Origin: an uncultured SAR86 cluster bacterium
GTDB lineage: Bacteria > Pseudomonadota > Gammaproteobacteria > Magnimaribacterales > AG-339-G14
Reading direction: 5' to 3'
NCBI GenBank assembly: GCA_902596665.1
Contig: CACJUN010000003.1
Location: 143,536 to 207,535 of the forward strand
Length of the DNA stretch: 64,000 nt
Shown here piece by piece: positions 18,121 to 30,278 of this stretch. The first letter of the stretch is position 1. Each line of letters starts with the position of its first letter. A program made the position numbers and the translations under genes. Below the pieces are notes generated by a model, which made no database searches, had not been told where the DNA came from, and saw only the letters and a list, made by a program, of their open reading frames with translations.

Positions 18121-19113
18121 TTATTTACCAATTAAACTGATAAGGAATTCAATGTGATCATCATCGTCATTGAGGCAAGGGATGTAATGAAAATTTTCTC
18201 CACCAGCATCCTCAAAATATTCTTTATTCTCTATATCAATTTCCTGCAAAGTTTCTAAGTTGTCGACACCAAAACCTGGAGATACTACCTGAACTGATTT
18301 TATGCCTTCTTTGGGAAGAGATTTCATTGTTTCGCTCGTATAAGGTTTCAACCATTCAGATGGACCAAATCTAGACTGAAAAGCTGTGATGTAATCTTTC
18401 TCATCCAAAGAAAGTTTTTCTGCAATCAATCTAGATGTTTTTTGGCATAGGCAATGATAGGGATCTCCTGAATCAAAATATTTCTTCGGTATAGAGTGAT
18501 AAGAAAATACTAATTTGTCTGGTTTGCCTTGAGAGTCAAAACTTTTTTGGATTCTTTCAGACAAGATTTCAATCAACAATGGATTATCGTGATAGCTATT
18601 TAGAAATTTTACGCTTGGCACCCATCTCCATGATTTAATTTCTGTCGATACTGCATCAAAAATACTCCCAACAGTTGTAGCTGAGTAATGAGGGAAAAGA
18701 GTGATTACCTCAATATCTCTACAGTTTGCTTCTTTTAATTCATTGAGAGCGGTTTTAATGCTCGGGTTTCCATACCTCATCCCAAGCGCTACTTGATAAT
18801 TTGATGGTAGAGATTTTTGAACCTTTTCTTTTATCTTGATGCAATTGACTAATAAAGGCGATCCTCCCTCAGTCCAGATTGACTTGTATAACCTAGCTGA
18901 GTTGAACGATCTAAAATTTAAGATAAAAATGTTTAAAACAAACCACCAAATTATTTTTGGCACTTCTATTATTCTAGGATCAGATAGAAACTCTTTAAGG
19001 TACCTTCTTACGCTTAAAACATCTGGAGAGTCAGGTGTTCCTAAGTAAGCAATAAGCACTCCTTTTTTTTGCTCATTTTCATGCTGAAAATTTTGTTCTC
19101 CTTTAAATTTCAT
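18121..19113 (-). CDS. hemH: Ferrochelatase
   Basis: LGTP, YLKEFLSDPR, MRYGNP, FQSRFG..WLKP, DNLETLQEI, CLND. Confidence 0.95.
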   Translation of the reverse strand: MKFKGEQNFQHENEQKKGVLIAYLGTPDSPDVLSVRRYLKEFLSDPRIIEVPKIIWWFVLNIFILNFRSFNSARLYKSIWTEGGSPLLVNCIKIKEKVQKSLPSNYQVALGMRYGNPSIKTALNELKEANCRDIEVITLFPHYSATTVGSIFDAVSTEIKSWRWVPSVKFLNSYHDNPLLIEILSERIQKSFDSQGKPDKLVFSYHSIPKKYFDSGDPYHCLCQKTSRLIAEKLSLDEKDYITAFQSRFGPSEWLKPYTSETMKSLPKEGIKSVQVVSPGFGVDNLETLQEIDIENKEYFEDAGGENFHYIPCLNDDDDHIEFLISLIGK

Positions 19114-20132
19114 TTAAAAGCCTGCCTTATTTGACTGACAAAATGTTTTACATGTTTTTCAGGTGTGTCTTTATTTATTCCATGTCCTAAACCACAAACC
19201 CAACCGACCCTCTCGTCTTGGCTTAATGCAAGCATGTCTTCAATGAAATGATCTAACGCTTGATGAAACTCATTAGAATCAGCAAGAATTTTTAATTCAT
19301 CAAAGTTTCCTTGCACAAATCCATGATCAACCTTTTTTAATGTTTCATGCAATGAAGTTTGTGAATCTATGCCAATTCCTGCAAAAGAGTTTTGGTTATT
19401 ATTAGCATGGGAAATAATGCAATTGTAATCAACTTCTTCTTTCGCATAGTAGCCAACTTTTTGTTCGAAAGGTTTAATCATATTTTCTACTACCTTTTCT
19501 AAATATGATGAAAAATCATCATCAACTAATTGATGCGCTGAAGAATCAAAAATCATCACAGTTTCGGCCCCTGCTTCAATTTGCATTGAAATATTTTTTT
19601 GTAGAAAAGGAATAATAAACTCCTCCAGCATGAAATTTTTTTCTTTTGTAAGACTTATAGAATTGCTCCCTAATTTATTAGTCCCCATGCCAAAGGAGAG
19701 GACTGTCCAAGGGCCTCCCACAAAACCAATTAGTGATTTATCGTGACCTAGTTTTTCCTTGGTTAAGTGTAGGGCTTCCGATTGAAACTCCATAAATCTG
19801 AGATCTTTTTTATGTAGTAGCTTTTTAAAATTTTGCTCAGTGAGGATATCCTCAAATTTTGGCCCTGGATCAAATACTAAATTCATCCCCATTGCTTGTA
19901 ACGGCCACAGAATGTCGCTAAAAAGAATGGCAACATCAAAGTCAAAATCCTCAATTGGTCCTAAAGCAGTTTCTGCAGCTAACTCAGGCTTTTTACATAG
20001 CTCTTCAAAAGAATGTTTTTTGCGCAGAGACTGATAATGTTTATGGTATCTCCCTGCCTGTCGCATGAACCATATTGGAGGACAAGATTGAGGTTTCCTC
20101 GCTAAAGCATTTTCAAATTTATAATTGGGCAT
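19110..20132 (-). CDS. hemE: Uroporphyrinogen decarboxylase
   Basis: PIWFMRQAGRY, ILFSDIL, IGFVGGPWT, LGHGI. Confidence 0.95.
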   Translation of the reverse strand: MPNYKFENALARKPQSCPPIWFMRQAGRYHKHYQSLRKKHSFEELCKKPELAAETALGPIEDFDFDVAILFSDILWPLQAMGMNLVFDPGPKFEDILTEQNFKKLLHKKDLRFMEFQSEALHLTKEKLGHDKSLIGFVGGPWTVLSFGMGTNKLGSNSISLTKEKNFMLEEFIIPFLQKNISMQIEAGAETVMIFDSSAHQLVDDDFSSYLEKVVENMIKPFEQKVGYYAKEEVDYNCIISHANNNQNSFAGIGIDSQTSLHETLKKVDHGFVQGNFDELKILADSNEFHQALDHFIEDMLALSQDERVGWVCGLGHGINKDTPEKHVKHFVSQIRQAFK

Positions 20133-20135
20133 AAT

Positions 20136-21125
20136 TCAGCTCAATTTCTGTGCAACTTCTTCTGCAGCATAAGTCAGTATGCAGTCAGAACCTGCTCTTT
20201 TGAAAGAATGTAAAACTTCCATCAAAACTTCTTCCTGCAACCACCCTTTTTCAATTGCACCTTTCAACATTGAGTATTCACCTGATACTTGATAAGCAAA
20301 TGTTGGTACTTTGAATTTTTCTTTTACTGCACGTATTACATCCAAGTAAGGCATGCCAGGTTTTACCATTACGGCATCTGCTCCTTCATTAAGATCCATC
20401 TCAACTTCGTGTAGAGCTTCATTAATATTATGGGGCGACATTTGATAAGAATCTTTATTTCCTTTGCCTAAATTAGACGATGATTGAACAGCTTCTCTGA
20501 AAGGACCATAAAATTTTGAACTGTATTTTGCAGCGTAAGAAAGTATTACTGTGTTAAAAAAATTATTTAGCTCAAGCTCTTTTCTAATAGCACCAATTCT
20601 CCCATCCATCATGTCTGAAGGCGCTATTACATCTGCTCCCGCATCTGCTAGAACTAAGGCTTGCTTTTTTAATACTTCGACTGTTTTGTCATTATCTACG
20701 TAATCTTTTTTGTCCAATATCCCATCGTGGCCATGCACGGTATAGGGATCAAGGGCAACGTCTACAATAAGAACTAATTCTGGAATCTTTTTTTTAATCG
20801 ACTCGACAGTCCCGCATATTAGGTTTTTTCGATTAAATGCTTCGATGCCCTCTAAATCCTTTTTTTTAGAATCTATCACAGGGAAAAGAGCGACAGCTTT
20901 TATTCCCAGATCCATTAAGCTTTTGCAGTAATCAATCACACCTTCCTTTGAATATCTGTTTACGTTTGGCATCGATTCAATTGCTTCAGCTTTTTTAATC
21001 CCTTCCTTGACAAAAATAGGTTGTATTAAATCGTCGACTGTTAGGTTGGTTTCTGCAGTTATTTTTAGCAGTGACGGATTACTGCGCAACCTTCGCAATC
21101 TAGTATCTGGAAATTTTCTATTCAT
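20136..21125 (-). CDS. hemB: Porphobilinogen synthase
   Basis: RLRRLR, APSDMMDGR, FYGPFREA, MVKPGMPYLD, YQVSGEY. Confidence 0.97.
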   Translation of the reverse strand: MNRKFPDTRLRRLRSNPSLLKITAETNLTVDDLIQPIFVKEGIKKAEAIESMPNVNRYSKEGVIDYCKSLMDLGIKAVALFPVIDSKKKDLEGIEAFNRKNLICGTVESIKKKIPELVLIVDVALDPYTVHGHDGILDKKDYVDNDKTVEVLKKQALVLADAGADVIAPSDMMDGRIGAIRKELELNNFFNTVILSYAAKYSSKFYGPFREAVQSSSNLGKGNKDSYQMSPHNINEALHEVEMDLNEGADAVMVKPGMPYLDVIRAVKEKFKVPTFAYQVSGEYSMLKGAIEKGWLQEEVLMEVLHSFKRAGSDCILTYAAEEVAQKLS

Positions 21126-22614
21126 CTGTATTAGCAGTTATTTGATGTTTCCAATCTTCGTAATTTAGAAAAGGTACAACTTTTCCCGAAATTTGGCGGT
21201 CAATTATGTCATAGCTTGCCCCTAAACCGCATGCATGATTAGCTTCGATAATATTAGGATATAATTCAAGCGCATATTCAAAAGCACTTCCGCTCATCCA
21301 ATAAAAATATTCTTTATCCCTTATTTTTATTTCATCTGCTTTTGGTATCAGTTCGTATGAGATGAATTTTTCCATTGAACTTTTTTCTTGGTTTCTATCA
21401 TGCGTAAAATTCAACCAATCTAAATCATCAAATAAAGTACAAGGCGGTTCATTATTTTTTCCTAAACTGTCTGATGTGCCATTTATCCAGTAGCCTTTCG
21501 CTGCAAGTTTTTTCCAAGTTTCAACTCCACCTGTCCACAAAATATTTGATGCGTTAATTCTAATTCCATCCAACAAAGCATCTTGTCTGGAAATAAAAAT
21601 TCCTTTGTTCTCCATTGCTTCTATTTTTTTTATTGAGGTTTTAATAAATTTGCGCTTAAAAAAAACACTCTCTGCTTTATCTTCAGGAAAAATTGCATTT
21701 TTATTTACCTTTTGTTCAATATTTAGCTTTGGTATCCGATTAAATGTGCTTTCTTTTAATTCAACGCCTTCTTCTGTTAGACCGATGATGTTGATTATCT
21801 CGCCTACATTAATCTTTCTTATTGATACGCCTATTTTTTGATGACATCCTCCTCCATGCTGAGAAAGAACTTTTCTCTCTCTAGATACTGCTTCAAAAGT
21901 ACTTTCATCGTTGATAGAAGCTGCAATAGAATTTGCAAAATCATTGTTTTCTGCAACTTCAATAGCAAGAGCACCCTGACCTGGAGCACAAGGATTAATT
22001 GAATTTGGTAGTATCATCCAAGAAAATGAATCAGAATTCTTTTTATAAAGCTCGACAAAATCCTCATCCCTAGCAAGCCTGTCAATAGCTGCTTTGGCAA
22101 TAACTACTCCGTCCAATGAATCGTTCAAAAATTTAGAAAGTCTAGTTTGAATATTTCCTCTGATTGGATGAAATTCAATCTTAGAGGTTTTCCACGGCAA
22201 TAAATCAGGCAATGATATTGAAAGGTTTCTCTCTCTTCTTGGAGAGGAAGAATAGATCTTTAAAGATTTTTTTTTAATTGAGTCCTTTTTAAAAAAAAGA
22301 ATATCCCTACTGTCAGATCTAGCAAGTGTTGAGACAATATCAGTGCCTTTTGGCATTTCGATTGGCAAGTCTTTCCATGAGTGAACGACCATGTCGGCCT
22401 CATCATTTAAAAGAGCATCTCTTAAATCTGATGTAAAGACTCCTTGTTCAGGCATTTTGCTTAAAGGAGTTGATAAATCTATGTCGCCCTTGGTTTCTCT
22501 ATATGAATGAGTGACATTGATGTTAGGAAATTTTTTTTTGATCTCATCTGCAACCAGATGAGCTTGTATTTTAGCCAGACTGCTATTTCTTGAAAGTATT
22601 CTAATAGTATTCAA
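21118..22614 (-). CDS. hemC: Hydroxymethylbilane synthase with ~200-aa C-terminal extension (putative HemC-HemD bifunctional)
   Basis: SR.S.LA.IQ, HSWKDLP, SSPRR, IRGNIQTRL, APGQGALAIE, cofactor Cys in GGGCHQ; TTG start. Confidence 0.9.
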   Translation of the reverse strand: MNTIRILSRNSSLAKIQAHLVADEIKKKFPNINVTHSYRETKGDIDLSTPLSKMPEQGVFTSDLRDALLNDEADMVVHSWKDLPIEMPKGTDIVSTLARSDSRDILFFKKDSIKKKSLKIYSSSPRRERNLSISLPDLLPWKTSKIEFHPIRGNIQTRLSKFLNDSLDGVVIAKAAIDRLARDEDFVELYKKNSDSFSWMILPNSINPCAPGQGALAIEVAENNDFANSIAASINDESTFEAVSRERKVLSQHGGGCHQKIGVSIRKINVGEIINIIGLTEEGVELKESTFNRIPKLNIEQKVNKNAIFPEDKAESVFFKRKFIKTSIKKIEAMENKGIFISRQDALLDGIRINASNILWTGGVETWKKLAAKGYWINGTSDSLGKNNEPPCTLFDDLDWLNFTHDRNQEKSSMEKFISYELIPKADEIKIRDKEYFYWMSGSAFEYALELYPNIIEANHACGLGASYDIIDRQISGKVVPFLNYEDWKHQITANTDE

Positions 22615-22675
22615 TATAACTGTTTGTTCTTAACAAAAACACAATGATACCCGAATGTTGGAAGAAGTTCTGATG

Positions 22676-22730
22676 TGTTATAGTTCTCACCAATTCGTCT
22701 TATAAAGCAAGCTGAATTAAATGGTAGGTA
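22676..22730 (+). promoter_or_regulatory. Putative extended -10 promoter (TGtTATAGT, 22676-22684) and SD region (ATGGTAGGTA, 22721-22730) of the ALAS gene
   Basis: Direct motif match; predicts a ~45-nt leader. Confidence 0.55.
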
Positions 22731-22734
22731 GTAA

Positions 22735-23976
22735 ATGAATTATGAAAAATTTTTTAGCGACGAGCTTAAATCTCTCAAGTCGCAAGGTTTGTATAGAAAA
22801 TTTCGCGAAATAAATAGAACTCGTTCGACTTTTCCAAAAGCAACTGAACGCGATGGAGATTCTAAGAGACAAGTAGAAGTTTGGTGCAGCAATGATTATC
22901 TAAACTTGAGCCAACATCCTGCTATCGTCAATGAAACCATAAAAGTTACCCAAGAATTAGGAACTGGTTCCGGTGGAACAAGAAACATTTCTGGCACTTC
23001 TTCTTATCATGCGGATCTCGAAAGAACGCTGGCTGAATTGCATAAAAAAGATTCTGCCTTAATCTTTCCATCTGCTTACACAGCCAATCAATCTACCCTG
23101 TGGACTTTATGTAAAAAATTAGAAGGAATTGAAATATATTCTGATGAACTCAATCATGCATCGATGATCCAAGGCATAAAAAATGCCAACGTTAAAGTTC
23201 ATATTTTTAGGCACAACGATACCGAACATCTTGAAGAATTATTAAAAACGTCAAATGCAAATACCCCGAAGATGATAGTTTTCGAATCCCTTTATTCTAT
23301 GGAGGGTTTAAGATCTCCAATTGAAAAGATTATTTGGCTAGCCGAAAAATATAACGCCCTTACATACTTAGACGAAGTTCATTCTGTTGGTTTATACGGT
23401 CCAGAAGGAAGAGGTATTGCTGCCGAAGCTGGAGTCTCAGATAAAATAGATATTATTAACGGAACTCTCTCAAAATCTTTTGGTCAATTAGGTGGCTATG
23501 TAGCTGCTAACGCAGATATCATAGATTTCATTAGAAGTTTTGCGCCTGGCTTTATATTTACCTCTTCAGTCAATCCTTCCATTGTAGCTAGCTCCATCAA
23601 AGCTATTAAACTTGCAAAAAAAGCAGATCACCTAAGAAGAGAAATAAAATTTAATTCTGATCAAATAAGATCTGGCTTAAGAAATCTGAATATTCCATTT
23701 ATCGAAAATGATAGTCATATAATTCCAATACTTATTAAAGATCCTGTCCTGTGTAAAGACGCAGCAAATCTTTTAGTTGATAAGCACGGTATCTATATTC
23801 AGCCTGTCTTTTTCCCAACGGTTCCAAAAGGTGATGAAAGGTTTAGGGTCACTATCACACCAAAACATAATGCAACAGATATACAAAACTTTTTAAATGC
23901 TATTGACGATGTTTGGACTGAAATGTCTCTAGATAGAGTCGAAACAGATAGCAAAATAGTAAGTTTGAATTCGTAA
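22735..23976 (+). CDS. hemA: 5-aminolevulinate synthase (C4/Shemin pathway)
   Basis: ALAS signatures [50 protein letters not shown] (PLP Lys), GFIFTSS. Confidence 0.93.
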
Positions 23977-23977
23977 C

Positions 23978-24886
23978 TTATTTTGTCGGGCGGTAGAAAG
24001 ATCTCCAAAGAGCTATTCCACCGATCAAGGAGATAATCCAGAAAAATAATTCAATGTAATTTGGATTGCTGTTGTAACCGAAAAAACCTTTAAGAAATAC
24101 GCCTACTCTTCCGCTGTCATGCATGATGTGCGTGTACTGTTGTTTGCCCTTTAAGTTGAACGAATAAAAGAAAGAGTTATCAGTTTCTTCGAGACTATCC
24201 TTAGGTTTTAAGATGTCCCAAGGACGAGAAATATCTGACTTGTTTTCTAAGCCTATGAGTTGTAGGTTATCTGACTTGACTAAATAGCTTTCAGCTTCAT
24301 GCGTGCCGTAAGCTATCATGCCTGATGCTAAGAAAACTAATAATAATGTCGTGGCTTGAAAAAAAGATCTTAAGTTAATCTTTCTCCCCTGAACAACGAC
24401 AAGATAGCCAATTAAAATTGCCAATGCTGCACCTACTGTGAACCCTAGGTAGCTGAAAGATCCTGTCATTGAAAAACTTCCCAAAAGGAAAATGGCTGTC
24501 TCAAATCCCTCTCTGAGAATAGAAAAGAAAATTACGAAGAAAATTCCCCAAGTTGATGCTTGAACAGCCGTATTAGTTTCGGCTTCAATTTGTTTTCTAT
24601 CACTGACGTGTTTTGATAGCCAAAAAATGACATACCAAATTAATCCAGCCGTGATAAACATGAATACTGATTCAAAAAGAGCTCTAGCAGATTCGTTGCT
24701 GAAGCTTTCTTTGAGAACGTAGACCACATAGCCTACAAGAATACTAAATACAAGTGCGGCAGCTACACCTATCCAAAGTTTTTTAATCGATTCGTAAAGT
24801 TCGTTTTTTATAAGGATCGTATAAATAATCCCAACAATTAAAGAAGCCTCGAGAGTTTCCCTAAAAACAATGATGAATTCATTCAT
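23978..24886 (-). CDS. FTR1/EfeU-family iron permease
   Basis: Two RExxE motifs (FRETLE, LREGFE) and multiple TM segments. Confidence 0.9.
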   Translation of the reverse strand: MNEFIIVFRETLEASLIVGIIYTILIKNELYESIKKLWIGVAAALVFSILVGYVVYVLKESFSNESARALFESVFMFITAGLIWYVIFWLSKHVSDRKQIEAETNTAVQASTWGIFFVIFFSILREGFETAIFLLGSFSMTGSFSYLGFTVGAALAILIGYLVVVQGRKINLRSFFQATTLLLVFLASGMIAYGTHEAESYLVKSDNLQLIGLENKSDISRPWDILKPKDSLEETDNSFFYSFNLKGKQQYTHIMHDSGRVGVFLKGFFGYNSNPNYIELFFWIISLIGGIALWRSFYRPTK

Positions 24887-24900
24887 TACAATAATTTATC

Positions 24901-25171
24901 AAATAAAGAGAGGAAGAGCTTAATTTTTCATCAGGGGTGTTTATAAGGAACGAACAAAAAAACTCTTCCAAAATTTTTTTAAAGCGTAGGGAAAATCAAT
25001 CTTGATGGTAGGTACAGATGGTAAGATTGATTTTCCCTTCAGTTCTTTCTCCTAATTAAGAACTGAGCTTTTGAAAATGACCTGCTCCGAAATCATGACC
25101 AGGGTATTGATCTTCATCGCCGCTCCGCCAACGGTTTTTGAATTCTTAGATTTGAGAGCAAGAAAGTTCAT
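24901..25171 (-). ncRNA. Candidate structured sRNA / long 3'UTR of the Fur-boxed TonB receptor
   Basis: Series of stems, including a perfect 16-bp inverted repeat (24988-25003/25023-25038), a 9-bp stem (25039-25066) and a terminal stem (24912-24969) followed by UCUCUUUAUUU; G-U pairs favour the minus strand. Confidence 0.55.
25052..25171 (-). CDS. Possible 39-aa small ORF (MNFLALKSKNSKTVGGAAMKINTLVMISEQVIFKSSVLN)
   Basis: ATG preceded by GAGGG just after the receptor stop; no recognisable homology; overlaps the predicted RNA stems. Confidence 0.2.
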   Translation of the reverse strand: MNFLALKSKNSKTVGGAAMKINTLVMISEQVIFKSSVLN

Positions 25172-25189
25172 AATTTTAATATTCCCTCT

Positions 25190-27286
25190 TTAAAATCTTC
25201 TAGAGTATGAAATCCTTGCACTCAGGGACTCACCAACAGAAGCTTGGTGGGTGCTATGTGAATGAGGGAAATATAATTCATCCGTCAAATTTTCTATATG
25301 CACTCTAATTACATCGTTATCAGATGCATTAACATAAAAAGCAAAATCAACTCTGGTGTAGTCAGGCAGAACAGGTCCTGTGCTTCCATTTGACGTATCT
25401 TTGATGAAAGACTCGGCCTGATGAGTTACTCCTAAACCAAAACCATAAGTTTCGTTAGCTTGATATGAGTACCATAACGAGAGCATCTGATTTGGCAGTT
25501 CTCTTGGTTGTTTAGTTCCTTTGCTTGTTTCACCATCAAGCGAGGTGTATCCAAAAGTTAAATTATTCTGATCATTAATATCACCAGATAATTCAAGCTC
25601 AACGCCTTCAACTTCAAGACCTCTAACTTCATTCATTTCTCCAGTAGCGTTATCTTTTTCAGCGCGAGTTGATTCGGAATCAAAGATTGCTGCTGTAAAT
25701 GTCAGAGCATCATTAATATCGTATTTGTAACCAAATTCAGTGTTCTTATAGACGTCTGGATCAAGAGCAGCTCCGCTAGCATCTAGCTTTTTATATTGCT
25801 CTCCCGATCTTGGAAGAAAACTTTCGCTGTAGCTAACATATAAGGACATGTTGTCTACCGGTTTGTAAATAACACCAAATCTTGGTGAAAACATATCGTC
25901 TTTTCTAGATTGATCCTGAGATTTTTTAACATCAGTAACAGTAATATCAAAGTTGTCTAGACGACCACCAATGATCATTTTCCAATTATCAGAGAAATCA
26001 ATATCACCTTGTAAATAGAAAGAGGTAACTGTGACATCAGACTCTGAGCTGCTTTTTAAATCTGTTGTGTAATCTACAGTAGAGTCTAACCCTGTTGACG
26101 TTTTTGCAATATTCAAAGGTCTCGTAATATTAAATATCTGCTGATCTGTAGGCTCACCTGCATCGCTGCCTGCTCTGTTGTTAAAGAAAGTGTTGTATCG
26201 GTAATTTTTATTGTCAGTATCAACAAACTCTAGACCAACCAAGACAGTACCTGAAGTGGAGCCATTATTAAATTCATTTACGACATTTGCAGAAACAATA
26301 AGATTTTGTCTTTCTGTAGGATCTAAATAACCATCAAGCTTTACGGTATTTGCCGCCGCATCATAACCAGCAGCATAAAGATTCTTATACATTTTTTTGA
26401 AGTCGCTTGAAGTGATACTCATATTGAATTTACCTGTGTCCGAGTAATCATGAGCAAGACTTCCTCTAAATATACTCGCTTCTAAAGTTTGTAAATTTAG
26501 GCCCTCCACACCGAATACGACATCTTTAAGACTCTCCACTGGCCTGTTGTTTGCAGTAGGAATACCTCTATCGATAAACCTTTCATGATCTGCGTATTCA
26601 TAAGATAAATCTATCGTAGTGGCATCATCTGCTTGAATTTTTAGGGTTGGGTTTATTCCGTATCTTTCCCCTTCGTAGAAATCTCTATGATTCGCTAAAG
26701 AATCTGCATGAAGGTTTAATCTAACAGCCGTTGAATCGGAAGTTGCAAAGTTAGCATCAACTGCTATATCAGAGGCGCCAAAAAGATCTGCACCAACATC
26801 AAATGAGCCAAAAGCTTCGCCGATTTCCGCTTTCTTTGAAACTCTATTGATTAGGCCTCCGGTTCCGCCTCTTCCAAAGAGTAGAGCATTCGGACCTCTT
26901 AAAATTTCTAATTGTTCTACGTTGTATAAGGATCTGTAATATTGAACATCATCTCTCACACCGTCTTGGTAAAAATCAGCTGTTGATCTAACTCCTCTAA
27001 AGACAACTGCGTCTCTGTGTCCTTCCCCTTGTGATGTGTTTACGCCGGGAGTATAGCGAATGATATCTCCTATCTCTCTAAAGCCCTGATTCTTTATTTC
27101 CTCATCGGTAATAACTGAAACAGATTGAGGAACGTCCAGAATTGGCAACGGAGGCTTAAGAGAATTAACTTGATCTACGTATAAAACTTTTCCTTTTACC
27201 TCAACTTCCTCCACATCATCGCTGTTTTGAGCAAATATGCTTAAAGCTCCCAATAAAAAAAATGCGGTATATATAAATTTTTTCAT
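25190..27286 (-). CDS. TonB-dependent iron/siderophore receptor (Fiu-like)
   Basis: Signal peptide, EEVEVKG TonB box, DVPQSVSVI, YTPGV..QGEGHRD..FRG, EILRGPNALLFGRGGTGGLINRV, C-terminal Phe; Fur boxes upstream. Confidence 0.9.
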   Translation of the reverse strand: MKKFIYTAFFLLGALSIFAQNSDDVEEVEVKGKVLYVDQVNSLKPPLPILDVPQSVSVITDEEIKNQGFREIGDIIRYTPGVNTSQGEGHRDAVVFRGVRSTADFYQDGVRDDVQYYRSLYNVEQLEILRGPNALLFGRGGTGGLINRVSKKAEIGEAFGSFDVGADLFGASDIAVDANFATSDSTAVRLNLHADSLANHRDFYEGERYGINPTLKIQADDATTIDLSYEYADHERFIDRGIPTANNRPVESLKDVVFGVEGLNLQTLEASIFRGSLAHDYSDTGKFNMSITSSDFKKMYKNLYAAGYDAAANTVKLDGYLDPTERQNLIVSANVVNEFNNGSTSGTVLVGLEFVDTDNKNYRYNTFFNNRAGSDAGEPTDQQIFNITRPLNIAKTSTGLDSTVDYTTDLKSSSESDVTVTSFYLQGDIDFSDNWKMIIGGRLDNFDITVTDVKKSQDQSRKDDMFSPRFGVIYKPVDNMSLYVSYSESFLPRSGEQYKKLDASGAALDPDVYKNTEFGYKYDINDALTFTAAIFDSESTRAEKDNATGEMNEVRGLEVEGVELELSGDINDQNNLTFGYTSLDGETSKGTKQPRELPNQMLSLWYSYQANETYGFGLGVTHQAESFIKDTSNGSTGPVLPDYTRVDFAFYVNASDNDVIRVHIENLTDELYFPHSHSTHQASVGESLSARISYSRRF

Positions 27287-27315
27287 AATTTTTTCCAATA
27301 TTTTTGGTCATATCT

Positions 27316-27369
27316 CATAATGATAATGAGAATCGTTCTCAATTATATACAAATGAGAATGATTATCAA
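27316..27369 (-). promoter_or_regulatory. Tandem Fur boxes overlapping a sigma70 promoter of the TonB receptor
   Basis: GATAATGAGAATCGTTCTC (27322-27340, 16/19 to GATAATGATAATCATTATC) and ACAAATGAGAATGATTATC (27349-27367, 14/19); minus-strand TTGATA-16bp-TATAAT (27369-27342). Confidence 0.85.
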
Positions 27370-27539
27370 TTGCTTTTAGAAATATCTTTATAACTTTCAT
27401 TAAAAAAAATAAGAAAATTAAAGATTAAAAGCCTTGACCTTTTTCTTTTTTCTTGTTTATAGCTAAAAAATAAGAGTTTGACGCTTTATGCAGAGTTGAA
27501 TACTCTGCAAAATATAGATTATTTTCTAGGGGGAAAATT

Positions 27540-30278
27540 ATGAATAAATTCTATTTATTAAGGTTATTTTTAATCTCCCTCCTTTGCATTCCTTTTGTAA
27601 ATTCGCAGGATGATGATACTGAAGAAGTCGTAGTTACAGGTTCACTGATTGCTACCGATAGAGAAGTTTTATCTGTTCCTGTTGATTCCTTCGATCGGGA
27701 TGATTTCGAGTCTGCTGGACAACCAGAAATATCTGATTTAGTCAGGAACCTTCCTGCTGTATCGGGTACTGTGAATACGTCTGAGCAATTCGTTGAAGGG
27801 GGAACAATAACCGGTATTAAAAACGTGAACATTAGAGGTCTGGGTGTTGCTAGAACTCTTGTTCTTATTAATGGTAAGAGAATGGTTGAAACTGCGGTTG
27901 CAACTAACTCTGCTGAGTCGCCAGTTGATATTGGTAACTTTCCATCAATTGCTCTAAAACGTATTGAATTACTTAAAAACGGTGGTTCAACAGTATACGG
28001 TTCTGATGCGGTTGCTGGTGTGTTCAATATGATCACAAGAAATGATTTTGAAGGTTTTGAAATGAATCTTTCAACTACCAATATTAATAACGCTGATCCT
28101 GGTTACAACTTTGGATTCATTTATGGAAATCAAAACGGTGATAACAGATTCACTATTTCTTATGAATACGAAGAAATTGGCCGTTTGATGAACATTGATC
28201 TTGGACTAGTAGATTGGTCTACGCCTGCAACTTGGTCTTTAGGATTTTCTTCTTTCGGTATGCCTGGAACTTGGCATCCTCTTGCTGGTGGTAGTGCCCA
28301 AGGTGAAGCTGCCATTATGGATCCGACCTGTGGCATGAGTGTTCCTGTTGCTGCATCTAAGTCAAAAGGTAAATCAGTTTCAGTTCCTATAACAGGCAAT
28401 CCTCATTCAAAATGTGGATATAACTATGTGCCATTTTCAAACGCAATTGATCCAACGACAAGGAACAAACTTTATGTAACTGCAGAATCAGATATTAATG
28501 AAGATACAATGTTATATTTTGAGTATCTCCATGCTGGATTGGACACTACATACACTGGTTCGCCTTCTTATCCGCCAACTGCTGCTGGTTACTACTTATT
28601 AGTTCCTAGTCACAACCCAGGTTTTCAAGAAATTGAAAGAGCTGCAGGGGTAGACATGGGAGATGCTGCTTTAACTTGGTTAAGAGCTAGAGCGGTTGAA
28701 GGTCCTGGAATGGAAAGACCTAACTATCACGATTCAGACAGAATCGTCACTGGTATTAAAACCGACATAACTGATTCAGTTCAGTTTGATGCGAGCATAA
28801 CTTACGGTGCTACCGAATGGAGTAATGCTTGGGGTGATGTTCTCACTGATAGATTTGCTATGGCTTTAAACGGTATCGGTGGTGAGGATTGTAGAGATCC
28901 TGCTACTGGTAATTTTTATGAAATTGGAACCGATGCTGCTTTAGCTGCTGCTGGAACTGGTAATTGTCATTACTACAACCCTGTTGGAGCTTCTATTGGT
29001 GCAAGTCCATCTGATCCTTATTACAACCATCCAGATGCTTGGGACTTCTTCTGGGGAGGACCTGAGGCTGAAGAGAAAAAATCTCTTACAGTTGGTGAAT
29101 TCGTTTTCTCTGGTTTTGGAGCAAATGATATTGGTTGGGCAGTTGGAGCTCAATTTAGAAAGTTTTATGGTTTCTATAGAGCTGCCGGTGATAACAGATG
29201 TCCAGACAATGGAAAATGTAACACTGTCTTCCATTTCTTGACTATGGATAAAACTGAAAGAATTGATAACGAAGTTACATCTCTATTTGGTGAGGTAAAT
29301 ATCCCAGCTGGAGACAACTTTGAAATTCAACTTGGTGCGAGATACATTGATTATGAACTTGATCAGGTAACAAAACCAAGAATGTCTTTCATCTGGGACG
29401 CTACAGACATCTTTAGTCTAAGATTCTCTTATGAGCAAACTTATAGAACTCCAGTTCTTGCCAGCCAGCCTACAGAATCTTTAGAAAGATATGCGCCTCT
29501 AGGTGAGTATGTAACAGTTGTGACTCCTGTTCCATCTACTCTTGAACCAGAGCAGTCTGACAACATGAACATTGGTTTTATAATCAGACCAACTGATCGA
29601 AGCCAATTAACCTTTGATTACTTCAACCTTGCATTTACAAATGGTTTCGCAAGAACAGCTTCAACAGCTCCTTCTGCAAGAATTATTTACAACACACCTG
29701 GTGATGACACTAGTGGTGTAGCAAGAATTGAAACTGACTTTATTAACGGAGATGACGTTGATATTTCAGGATTAGATTTTGAAGGTTCTGTTGGATTTGA
29801 TTCTGGAAATGCTGTAATGCAATTCTCTTATGGTGGTACCTATATGACTCAATACGACGTTGCTGGTGGTATTGGTGCCTTAGCGGGGGGAACTTACGAT
29901 GCATTGGGTAAATTCAACACTAGATCATCTGTATCGCCTATCGTCTTAAGATCATTGCCAGAACTGCAATTATTCTTAGGATTAGGAATAGATATCGACA
30001 TTCATAGAATGAATATATATCTAAGACACATAAGTGAATACGATGTTCCTGATACCATAACTGCTGCCTACAGCTTTATCGATAAAATTGATTCTATGAA
30101 TACTATAGATTTCAATTACTCAGTTAACTTAGCTGATGACAGAGTTACTTTAAACATAAGTGCTCACAACTTACTTGATGAGAAGCCACCTTTAGCTCCA
30201 TCTGAGTTAGGTTATGATGCTTATACACATTCTCCTGTGGGAAGAGTTCTGAAAGCTGGTATCCAGTACAGATTCTAA
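27540..30278 (+). CDS. TonB-dependent receptor, 912 aa, substrate unknown
   Basis: EEVVVTGS, VNIRGLGVARTLVLINGKR, RIELLKNGGSTVYGSDAVAGVFN, C-terminal YRF. Confidence 0.93.
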   Translation: MNKFYLLRLFLISLLCIPFVNSQDDDTEEVVVTGSLIATDREVLSVPVDSFDRDDFESAGQPEISDLVRNLPAVSGTVNTSEQFVEGGTITGIKNVNIRGLGVARTLVLINGKRMVETAVATNSAESPVDIGNFPSIALKRIELLKNGGSTVYGSDAVAGVFNMITRNDFEGFEMNLSTTNINNADPGYNFGFIYGNQNGDNRFTISYEYEEIGRLMNIDLGLVDWSTPATWSLGFSSFGMPGTWHPLAGGSAQGEAAIMDPTCGMSVPVAASKSKGKSVSVPITGNPHSKCGYNYVPFSNAIDPTTRNKLYVTAESDINEDTMLYFEYLHAGLDTTYTGSPSYPPTAAGYYLLVPSHNPGFQEIERAAGVDMGDAALTWLRARAVEGPGMERPNYHDSDRIVTGIKTDITDSVQFDASITYGATEWSNAWGDVLTDRFAMALNGIGGEDCRDPATGNFYEIGTDAALAAAGTGNCHYYNPVGASIGASPSDPYYNHPDAWDFFWGGPEAEEKKSLTVGEFVFSGFGANDIGWAVGAQFRKFYGFYRAAGDNRCPDNGKCNTVFHFLTMDKTERIDNEVTSLFGEVNIPAGDNFEIQLGARYIDYELDQVTKPRMSFIWDATDIFSLRFSYEQTYRTPVLASQPTESLERYAPLGEYVTVVTPVPSTLEPEQSDNMNIGFIIRPTDRSQLTFDYFNLAFTNGFARTASTAPSARIIYNTPGDDTSGVARIETDFINGDDVDISGLDFEGSVGFDSGNAVMQFSYGGTYMTQYDVAGGIGALAGGTYDALGKFNTRSSVSPIVLRSLPELQLFLGLGIDIDIHRMNIYLRHISEYDVPDTITAAYSFIDKIDSMNTIDFNYSVNLADDRVTLNISAHNLLDEKPPLAPSELGYDAYTHSPVGRVLKAGIQYRF

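Follow-up and report, generated by a model that had tools for sequence, protein, structure and literature searches.

Can the mRNA of an iron-uptake receptor also restrain the use of iron? This question is raised by a locus of an uncultured SAR86 cluster bacterium, in which a very stable hairpin lies downstream of the gene for a TonB-dependent siderophore-type receptor and exposes a loop complementary to the ribosome-binding region of the neighbouring 5-aminolevulinate synthase (ALAS) gene. The locus belongs to a 64,000-nt stretch of DNA (hereafter the window; contig CACJUN010000003.1 of assembly GCA_902596665.1, forward-strand positions 143,536 to 207,535), to which the positions below refer unless another contig is named. 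Comparison with related genomes makes it likely that the hairpin is a trans-acting element working by base pairing. That it forms part of a Fur-driven, Hfq-independent riboregulator, embedded in the receptor mRNA and sparing iron, is a reading we hold with fairly good confidence, and the element would probably represent a new iron-sparing regulatory RNA. The module is intercistronic in this genome; in sister genera it is a true 3′ untranslated region (3′UTR) ending in an intrinsic terminator.

A conserved hairpin downstream of the receptor gene

The hairpin occupies positions 24988-25038 and is read on the minus strand. The sequence AGGGAAAATCAATCTT at 24988-25003 is followed by its exact reverse complement at 25023-25038, giving 16 bp with zero mismatches around a 19-nt loop (25004-25022; minus-strand reading ACCAUCUGUACCUACCAUC). 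The perfect stem and loop described in the initial annotation of this locus are exact in the sequence and also in the fold. In the minimum free energy structure of the 291-nt intergenic minus-strand RNA the 16-bp stem is kept and the loop is unpaired (z = -4.88; 0/200 shuffles as stable). A 9-bp hairpin adjoins it on the same strand at 25039-25066 (arms UCAGUUCUU and AAGAACUGA, loop AAUUAGGAGA). Both are contained in a 303-nt intercistronic region (24887-25189, minus strand), which extends from the receptor stop codon to the start codon of an EfeU/FTR1-family iron permease gene. The annotation had placed the hairpin in the 3′ tail of the receptor message. Since it is found between the receptor and permease genes, with no terminator behind it, it does not form a terminal 3′ tail here.

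Conservation was assessed on ALAS loci from 30 relatives and 15 more, in which the window's genus is designated g1 and its sister genera g2, g3, and g4. The hairpin was found in 10/10 g1 loci long enough to reach it; an 11th contig stops short. In the alignment of these ten spacers about 4/51 hairpin columns vary, and within the loop 2/19, both in locus L017. The flanks are far more variable, with changes in 79/120 columns on the 5′ side and 41/104 on the 3′ side (39-66%). The adjacent 9-bp hairpin is kept within the genus with 9/30 columns varying. Moreover, the most divergent g1 member (L019, ALAS 94% identical) contains a compensatory stem pair, with T>C in one arm and A>G in the other. This pattern of substitution indicates that the hairpin is under selection, its loop included.

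Several other identities were considered for this region and rejected. A 39-aa open reading frame (ORF) with an SD-like (Shine-Dalgarno-like) sequence lies between the receptor gene and the hairpins (25052-25171, minus strand), but it does not behave as coding sequence: its ATG or frame is lost in L013 and L018, indels are present, and 79/120 columns vary. A repeat of the repetitive extragenic palindromic (REP) or miniature inverted-repeat transposable element (MITE) kind was dismissed because a 121-nt query matches only itself in the 1.28-Mb assembly, with short chance matches elsewhere. The hairpin is not a canonical intrinsic terminator either, being absent from a consensus terminator scan and having an AU-rich stem, a 19-nt loop, and the tail ACGCUUUAAAAAAA. 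Searches with Rfam 15 of positions 22000-28000 (E <= 10) gave only noise far below the gathering scores, and searches of four sister-genus 3′UTRs (E <= 1) gave only sub-threshold noise. The earlier remark that the element has no obvious similarity to known small RNAs (sRNAs) is therefore upheld at the level of Rfam families, here and in the sister 3′UTRs.

The parental mRNA would be that of the receptor gene (25190-27286, minus strand; TIGR01783, 255 bits against a cut-off of 223), for which the ATG at 27286 is a likelier start than the TTG at 27298 given by the automated ORF call. The best promoter-like site of the region (11/12; TTGATA, 16-nt spacer, TATAAT) is located upstream of this gene, with the -35 element at 27369-27364 and the -10 element at 27347-27342 of the minus strand. 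Two Fur-box-like sites, at 27373-27355 and 27340-27322, overlap the promoter (27322-27373 in all), and each agrees at 15/19 positions with a 19-bp consensus. The same tandem layout precedes the orthologous receptor in g1, g2, and g4 (one genome each) and in g3 (two genomes), with scores of up to 18/19, and Fur boxes were also found at the receptor ortholog of a neighbouring family, f2. A fur gene is encoded in the genome. From these sites, whose conservation in four genera bears out the term Fur-boxed that was first applied to the receptor, it is very probable that the receptor is Fur-controlled. The promoter with the Fur boxes belongs to the mRNA rather than to an sRNA gene in its own right; the minus strand from 25400 to 25040 yielded no promoter-like site, and the signature of a free-standing sRNA gene is missing there.

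The initial annotation had also proposed a check for hfq. Searches with the Pfam model found Hfq in 0/50 genomes of the family, 14 of which are at least 90% complete, and a search for ProQ in the window's genome was negative as well. Genes for RNase E/G and RNase III are present. In the absence of Hfq, any mechanism involving the hairpin would be Hfq-independent, and the display of a large loop on a long stem would fit chaperone-independent pairing.

Marine metatranscriptome contigs extend over the hairpin region in 4/4 runs from 4 studies (for example 24740-25072, 24901-25046, 25017-25284, and 25008-25258). As assembled Logan contigs they establish presence but say nothing of strand, RNA ends, or level, and they may stem from carried-over DNA. 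In three runs from three studies the contigs break at about 25258-25284, within the 3′ end of the receptor coding region. The k-mer depth is 5-7x higher on the hairpin side than on contigs of the receptor body, a difference not used as evidence since contig depth cannot rank the parts of a gene. Nor was any weight given to stretches that no contig covers. The hairpin-side contigs are about 92% identical to the window compared with 99.5% for the others, so strain mixing or an abundant relative could explain the depth.

A hairpin in this position might act only in cis, by protecting the receptor mRNA from 3′-exonucleases, by processing or attenuation that sets the ratio of receptor to permease, or as a leaky terminator, with its complementarities to other mRNAs being incidental. 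The very stable 16-bp stem is indeed flanked by two same-strand cistrons, the contig 24740-25072 bridges the hairpin and the EfeU/FTR1 start, and the RNase III encoded in the genome would be consistent with processing. On the other hand, no part of the spacer is as well conserved as the loop, and because a stabiliser or terminator needs no fixed loop sequence, this conservation counts against a role in cis alone. The scan, moreover, found no G+C-rich stem with a U tract at the hairpin. Together with the comparisons between genera given below, these observations make a purely cis-acting structure unlikely.

Complementarity between the loop and the ALAS leader

The proposed target of the loop is the leader of the ALAS gene (22735-23976, plus strand; 413 aa; TIGR01821, 559 bits against a cut-off of 338 in the NCBIfam and ORF calls). 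The site AUGGUAGGUA (22721-22730, plus strand) covers positions -14 to -5 of this leader in the SD region, ending 4 nt before the ATG at 22735, and loop positions 25014-25005 are its complement over all 10 nt, precisely as had been claimed. Pairing of the loop with the start codon, suggested at the same time, is possible too: AUG 22735-22737 can contribute 3 more bp across a 3x4 internal loop. The predicted energy of the duplex is -16.6 kcal/mol.

How far the match exceeds chance in this genome alone is marginal. The window contains exactly two copies of the 10-mer ATGGTAGGTA, one at 22721-22730 and the other in the loop at 25005-25014. When one mismatch is allowed, 3 copies are found against 1.79 expected, and at least 3 were obtained in 23/100 shuffles. 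The argument from rarity in the initial annotation is insufficient by itself, the counts being near those of shuffled sequence. The longest antisense match between the whole intergenic RNA (306 nt) and the ALAS leader from -20 to +5 is 10 nt, with P of about 0.005-0.01 by dinucleotide shuffles. Energy predictions on whole UTRs gave long-loop artefacts, and counts of the longest match were used instead. It is the comparative data, not the arithmetic of a single genome, that make the finding real.

Within g1 the ALAS leader varies, and a 10-nt Watson-Crick (WC) match to the near-invariant loop was found in 6/10 genomes. One of these is L019, whose leader differs (…TAGGTACAGAATG) and is complementary to a shifted 10-nt part of the same loop (the TAGGTACAGA match; P of about 0.005). 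In L014, with an A>G change in the leader, and in L017, with a change in the loop, 11 contiguous bp can be formed if G.U pairs are allowed.

Further genomic analysis revealed a different element in the sister genus g3. In 14/16 of its genomes the 3′UTR of the same receptor contains a stem-loop unrelated to that of g1: an outer stem and GCC/GGC enclose the 17-nt loop UUUUCAUUUCAUCUCAU, and a conserved C-rich stretch and an intrinsic terminator come next. The block GCC-UUUUCAUUUCAUCUCAU-GGC is invariant across the 14 genomes save for the length of its U-run. The order is receptor stop codon, stem-loop, terminator, with no cistron downstream, and since the shared terminator is reached only after the element, the latter is part of the receptor transcript. 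The separate terminator and the missing downstream cistron also speak against the purely cis-acting roles considered above.

The g3 loop is complementary to the g3 ALAS leader GGAGATGAAATGAA, which includes the SD and AUG (-8 to +4), over 10-13 nt by WC pairing and 12-13 nt with G.U pairs, in 14/14 carriers of the element. This match was reached by 0/2000 shuffles of the UTR and by 2-3/2000 shuffles of the leader (P < 0.001). The leader variants L045 and L053 both contain A>G opposite U. When UTR and leader come from the same genome, the longest match averages 8.8 nt in g1, 8.2 in g2, 12.6 in g3, and 6.75 in g4, while pairs taken across genera give 5.4-7.0. The covariation check that had been proposed, namely whether the loop is conserved and tracks the hemA SD, was thereby carried out, with an outcome that favours the reading: the g1 loop is near-invariant, the L019 leader matches it in a shifted register, and loop and leader are exchanged together in g3.

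Further leaders and alternative explanations

The loop was next compared with 1592 candidate translation-initiation regions (TIRs), the genome-wide scan being confined to the window's genome. Only three TIRs in that genome have a loop complement of at least 9 nt: ALAS, iscS, and the gene for a divergent 688-aa GltD-like flavoprotein with several [4Fe-4S] clusters. The iscS gene (TIGR02006, 672 bits) contains its site, TGGTAGGTA, 3 nt before a TTG start. The flavoprotein comprises DUF6538, Fer4_20, Pyr_redox_2, and two 4Fe-4S domains, and its site TAGGTACAGA is found 3 nt before the ATG. The leaders of iscS and the flavoprotein gene, together with those of ETF-QO and a PuuD-like membrane protein, all on contig C1, complement overlapping parts of the loop. 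In g1 the iscS site is conserved in 11/12 genomes and the flavoprotein site in 12/12.

Equivalent matches were found between the g3 leaders and the g3 loop. Complementarity amounts to 11-15 nt for iscS in 4/4 short-form genes (P <= 0.004) and to 9 nt for the flavoprotein gene in 4/4. For comparison, the g3 loop matches 17 of the 1592 TIRs of the window's genome by at least 9 nt and 2 by at least 11 nt, and when loops are swapped between the genera every gene gives only 4-7 nt. Because the choice of ALAS, iscS, and the flavoprotein gene had already been made by the g1 scan when g3 was considered, their joint recurrence in g3 is the strongest statistical argument. The leader of ETF-QO (FixC-like) matches by 6-9 nt in 6 g3 genomes and by 7 nt in 11/11 g1 genomes; it was noticed first in g3 and hence was not fixed beforehand by the g1 scan. 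The leader of the PuuD-like protein matches by 7-10 nt in 14/14 g1 genomes and by 11 nt in 4/12 g3 genomes.

The 11-mer GATGAAATGAA was counted in five g3 genomes, where it is present in 4-8 copies compared with 0-1 for a reversed control. At true gene starts it was found only for ALAS (5/5) and iscS (the 4 genomes with short-form iscS). The remaining copies belong to D-E-M-N/K codons read in frame, to the UTR, or to short ORFs. In a separate observation, the 5′UTR of ETF-QO in one g3 genome contains an 18-nt perfect complement of the g3 loop at -57 to -40, between etfB and ETF-QO (L207, G065:C1, about 455213-455240), which is beyond the stretch of leader used for scoring.

These matches suggest the following mechanism. 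When iron is low, Fur repression would be lifted and the receptor mRNA made, as the conserved Fur boxes imply. The strand bearing the loop would be transcribed, with the full mRNA or a processed fragment as the active species. Judging from folding and conservation, the 16-bp stem would present the 19-nt loop in single-stranded form, and the loop, whose complementarity and genus-specific covariation were computed, would pair in the cell with the SD and start regions of the mRNAs for ALAS, IscS, the multi-[4Fe-4S] GltD-like flavoprotein, ETF-QO, and the PuuD-like protein. The interaction would be of the loop-to-linear type and proceed without Hfq or ProQ. Occlusion of the ribosome-binding site would then lower the machinery and clients of heme and Fe-S synthesis while uptake rises. 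The self-contained iron-heme switch that had been envisaged is too narrow a description, since the same loops are also matched by the leaders of iscS, the Fe-S flavoprotein, ETF-QO, and the PuuD-like protein. A role in cis alone, moreover, would give no reason for three to five leaders of iron-related genes to follow the loop in two genera.

More tentatively, the seed may have been replaced, or born twice, between the sister genera while the regulon of leaders (ALAS, IscS, Fe-S flavoproteins, and PuuD-like) tracked it. This would be a natural case of regulon-wide co-evolution of seed and targets and the first RNA control found of ALAS-type heme synthesis in bacteria, a proposal that we regard as possible and somewhat short of even.

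A number of observations weigh against regulation by pairing, and some of them are what an explanation by chance would build on, in which the complementarity is a post-hoc pick from an AT-rich genome and the hairpin is conserved for another reason. Counts within the window's genome are compatible with chance: 2/1592 TIRs have a loop complement of at least 10 nt compared with 0.35 for shuffled loops (P = 0.057), and 3/1592 have at least 9 nt compared with a shuffled mean of 1.7 (P = 0.24). Ranked by simple duplex energy, ALAS comes 5th of 1592 and not first, with the flavoprotein gene 6th and iscS 7th; those ahead of ALAS are ZigA, a GPH symporter, the PuuD-like protein, and an MBL-fold hydrolase, and three further top energy matches (SecD, TrmD, and LptD) are internal false starts. 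Little or nothing is found in g2, g4, and f2. In g2 there are weak, AT-rich matches of 6-10 nt (GUAAGU / ACUUAC with extensions, P of about 0.05), in g4 only a weak 6-7 nt motif (CUCUAC / GUAGAG), and in f2, where the receptor ortholog is 62-64% identical and followed by a structured 3′UTR of about 220 nt, no complementarity to the family's own ALAS leader beyond AT-rich matches of 6-8 nt. Within g1 the ALAS pairing of L018 is degenerate (6 nt WC, 8 nt with G.U), and no terminator-like site was detected after the hairpin in the scan of this locus, nor does one follow in the rest of the genus. Two g3 genomes are without the element; one of them (G066) is also without the GGAGATG leader, and the other (G064) retains it. 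Genomes of one genus are also kin, so the comparisons amount to about 4-6 independent events and not to dozens.

Against chance, however, stand tests decided on in advance: the g3 ALAS test, with the shuffle counts given above, the shifted match of L019, and the g3 matches of iscS and the flavoprotein gene when set against backgrounds of 2/1592 and 17/1592. Pairs of non-cognate loop and leader, moreover, give only 4-7 nt. Taken together, these results leave chance scarcely credible as the explanation.

The motif shared by loop and leaders could instead be a binding site for a protein, either a DNA-binding regulator or an RNA-binding protein, such as a factor recognising TGTACC...GGTACA palindromes. 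The g1 loop does include GGTACA / TGTACC, which is part of a palindrome upstream of iscS and of the DUF6538 flavoprotein gene in all four genera. That the GGTACA of the flavoprotein site is shared with this conserved, operator-like palindrome is a further point to be set against pairing. The g3 loop, however, is without that hexamer and yet matches the g3 leaders by 9-15 nt, and a protein motif should persist between sister genera where here it is replaced. Furthermore, the transcribed strand of the hairpin bears the complement of the leader sequence and not a copy of it, and an operator inside the loop of a 16-bp palindrome would be odd. A protein site is on these grounds very improbable, and a trans-acting RNA remains our preferred reading.

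The palindrome itself, TGTACC-N17-20-GGTACA, is conserved upstream of genes bearing DUF6538 and is probably the operator of some regulator. DUF6538 (about 60 aa) forms the N-terminus of the GltD-like flavoprotein (C1:92338-94404 of the window's genome, minus strand; L075:338-2404). It is also N-terminal in the long-form IscS of 7 family genomes (L090, L091, L093-L095, L097, and L106).

In genus g10 of f2 (L185-L188) the 3′UTR after the receptor stop codon, with its 4-5 hairpins, the conserved C-rich loop ACCCCUCCCC, and its terminator, may be a related riboregulator that acts on different targets.

Relation to known RNAs and genomic setting

The closest parallels to the proposed element come from RNAs that spare metals. 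RsaC of Staphylococcus aureus is a metal-sparing sRNA derived from the 3′UTR of the mntABC manganese-uptake operon (PMC6765141, PMC9438474). Like RsaC, the RNA would share its transcript with a metal-uptake gene controlled by a metal-sensing repressor, would block translation of metal consumers, and would have no requirement for Hfq, which is here deduced from the absence of that protein. RsaC responds to manganese through MntR, measures 584-1116 nt, is set free by RNase III, and acts mainly on sodA. The element described here differs in its response to iron through Fur, its outer-membrane receptor parent, its loop seed of 17-19 nt, and its ALAS, IscS, and Fe-S flavoprotein targets, and it has no sequence similarity to RsaC.

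RyhB is Fur-controlled and represses iscSUA (PMC13501541). Like RyhB and PrrF, the element would combine Fur-box control with repression of Fe-S assembly and of iron-using proteins at the 5′ ends of their mRNAs. RyhB and PrrF are transcribed from genes of their own, each with a promoter and a terminator, and depend on Hfq, whereas the present RNA forms part of an mRNA, Hfq was found in none of the 50 genomes, and no Rfam family matches. IsaR1 of cyanobacteria represses sufBCD (PMC7247011). The element resembles it, and IsrR of S. aureus, in that both are base-pairing RNAs of iron starvation that repress Fe-S assembly or enzymes in Hfq-independent settings, a role that is predicted here. IsrR and IsaR1 are independent genes, unlike the mRNA-embedded element. 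Tetrapyrrole synthesis is a further target of IsaR1, and IsrR, which acts through C-rich loops, has a glutamate-synthase gene among its targets; we know of no RNA of this type that is located within a receptor mRNA or that targets ALAS.

In g3 the arrangement resembles that of processed enterobacterial sRNAs from 3′UTRs (CpxQ, SroC, and NarS), with a seed past the stop codon of a related gene and a shared terminator; these require RNase E together with either Hfq or ProQ, as stated in a review (PMC9438474). The terms "TonB" and "heme" do not occur in the searched text of that review. As would be expected of an mRNA-embedded sRNA, the g3 element lies on the same strand past the parental stop codon and before its terminator in 14/16 genomes, while in g1 another cistron follows. 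A conserved single-stranded seed, complementary to TIRs and covarying with them, was also found. Because it has no sequence or structure match to them, is not a free-standing gene, and occurs without Hfq, the element belongs to none of the RsaC, RyhB/PrrF, and IsrR/IsaR1 families. Searches of article text on SAR86 and iron sRNAs, UTR-derived Fur sRNAs, RsaC, IsaR1, and RNA control of ALAS gave no published description of it; catalogues of sRNAs from marine metatranscriptomes could affect its novelty, non-coding RNA being mentioned, for instance, in PMC3358033.

Iron limits heterotrophic bacteria across large ocean areas, and to our knowledge almost nothing has been established about how uncultured, streamlined lineages without Hfq control iron at the post-transcriptional level. 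If the proposed reading is correct, an abundant Hfq-less streamlined lineage of marine gammaproteobacteria would run its iron sparing from a Fur-regulated receptor mRNA. One message would couple iron uptake to the shut-down of heme and Fe-S synthesis, avoiding both porphyrin build-up and waste of iron, and a loop-presented, Hfq-independent analogue embedded in an mRNA would join the series of RyhB, PrrF, IsrR, and IsaR1. The genus-specific seeds with their matching sets of leaders would be natural compensatory mutants that bear on how sRNA regulons are born in 3′UTRs, and the element could serve as a transcript marker of iron stress in metatranscriptomes.

The window is part of contig C3 of a 1.28-Mb assembly (14 contigs, 94% complete). 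Beside the ALAS gene, hemH, hemE, hemB, and hemC occupy 18121-22614 on the minus strand. The hemC ORF (21118-22614, minus strand) encodes 498 aa, of which the hydroxymethylbilane synthase model spans residues 4-283 only, and its C-terminal part of about 200 aa may be a fused hemD. The family's ALAS is 62-63% identical to that of Pelagibacter-type alphaproteobacterial single-cell genomes (loci L111-L177). In the same order, ALAS was not found in the sister family f3 (0/8 genomes), and f4 gave a single 32%-identical match in 1/8 genomes. The likeness to the Pelagibacter type, combined with this near-absence in f3 and f4, suggests that the ALAS route was laterally acquired.

A second, divergent receptor gene is found beyond the TonB-dependent receptor. 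On the other side of the hairpin, the EfeU/FTR1-family permease gene (23978-24886, minus strand) scores 170 bits with NF041756 and 152 bits with TIGR00145, both under their cut-offs. Its position downstream of the hairpin is confined to g1. In g2-g4 no permease gene stands between ALAS and the receptor gene, which are convergent neighbours there. The permease gene is thus 3′ of the Fur-boxed receptor in g1 but immediately precedes it in g2 and g4 (L182 and L183), and from this difference it appears that the iron-uptake pair was rearranged around the RNA element.

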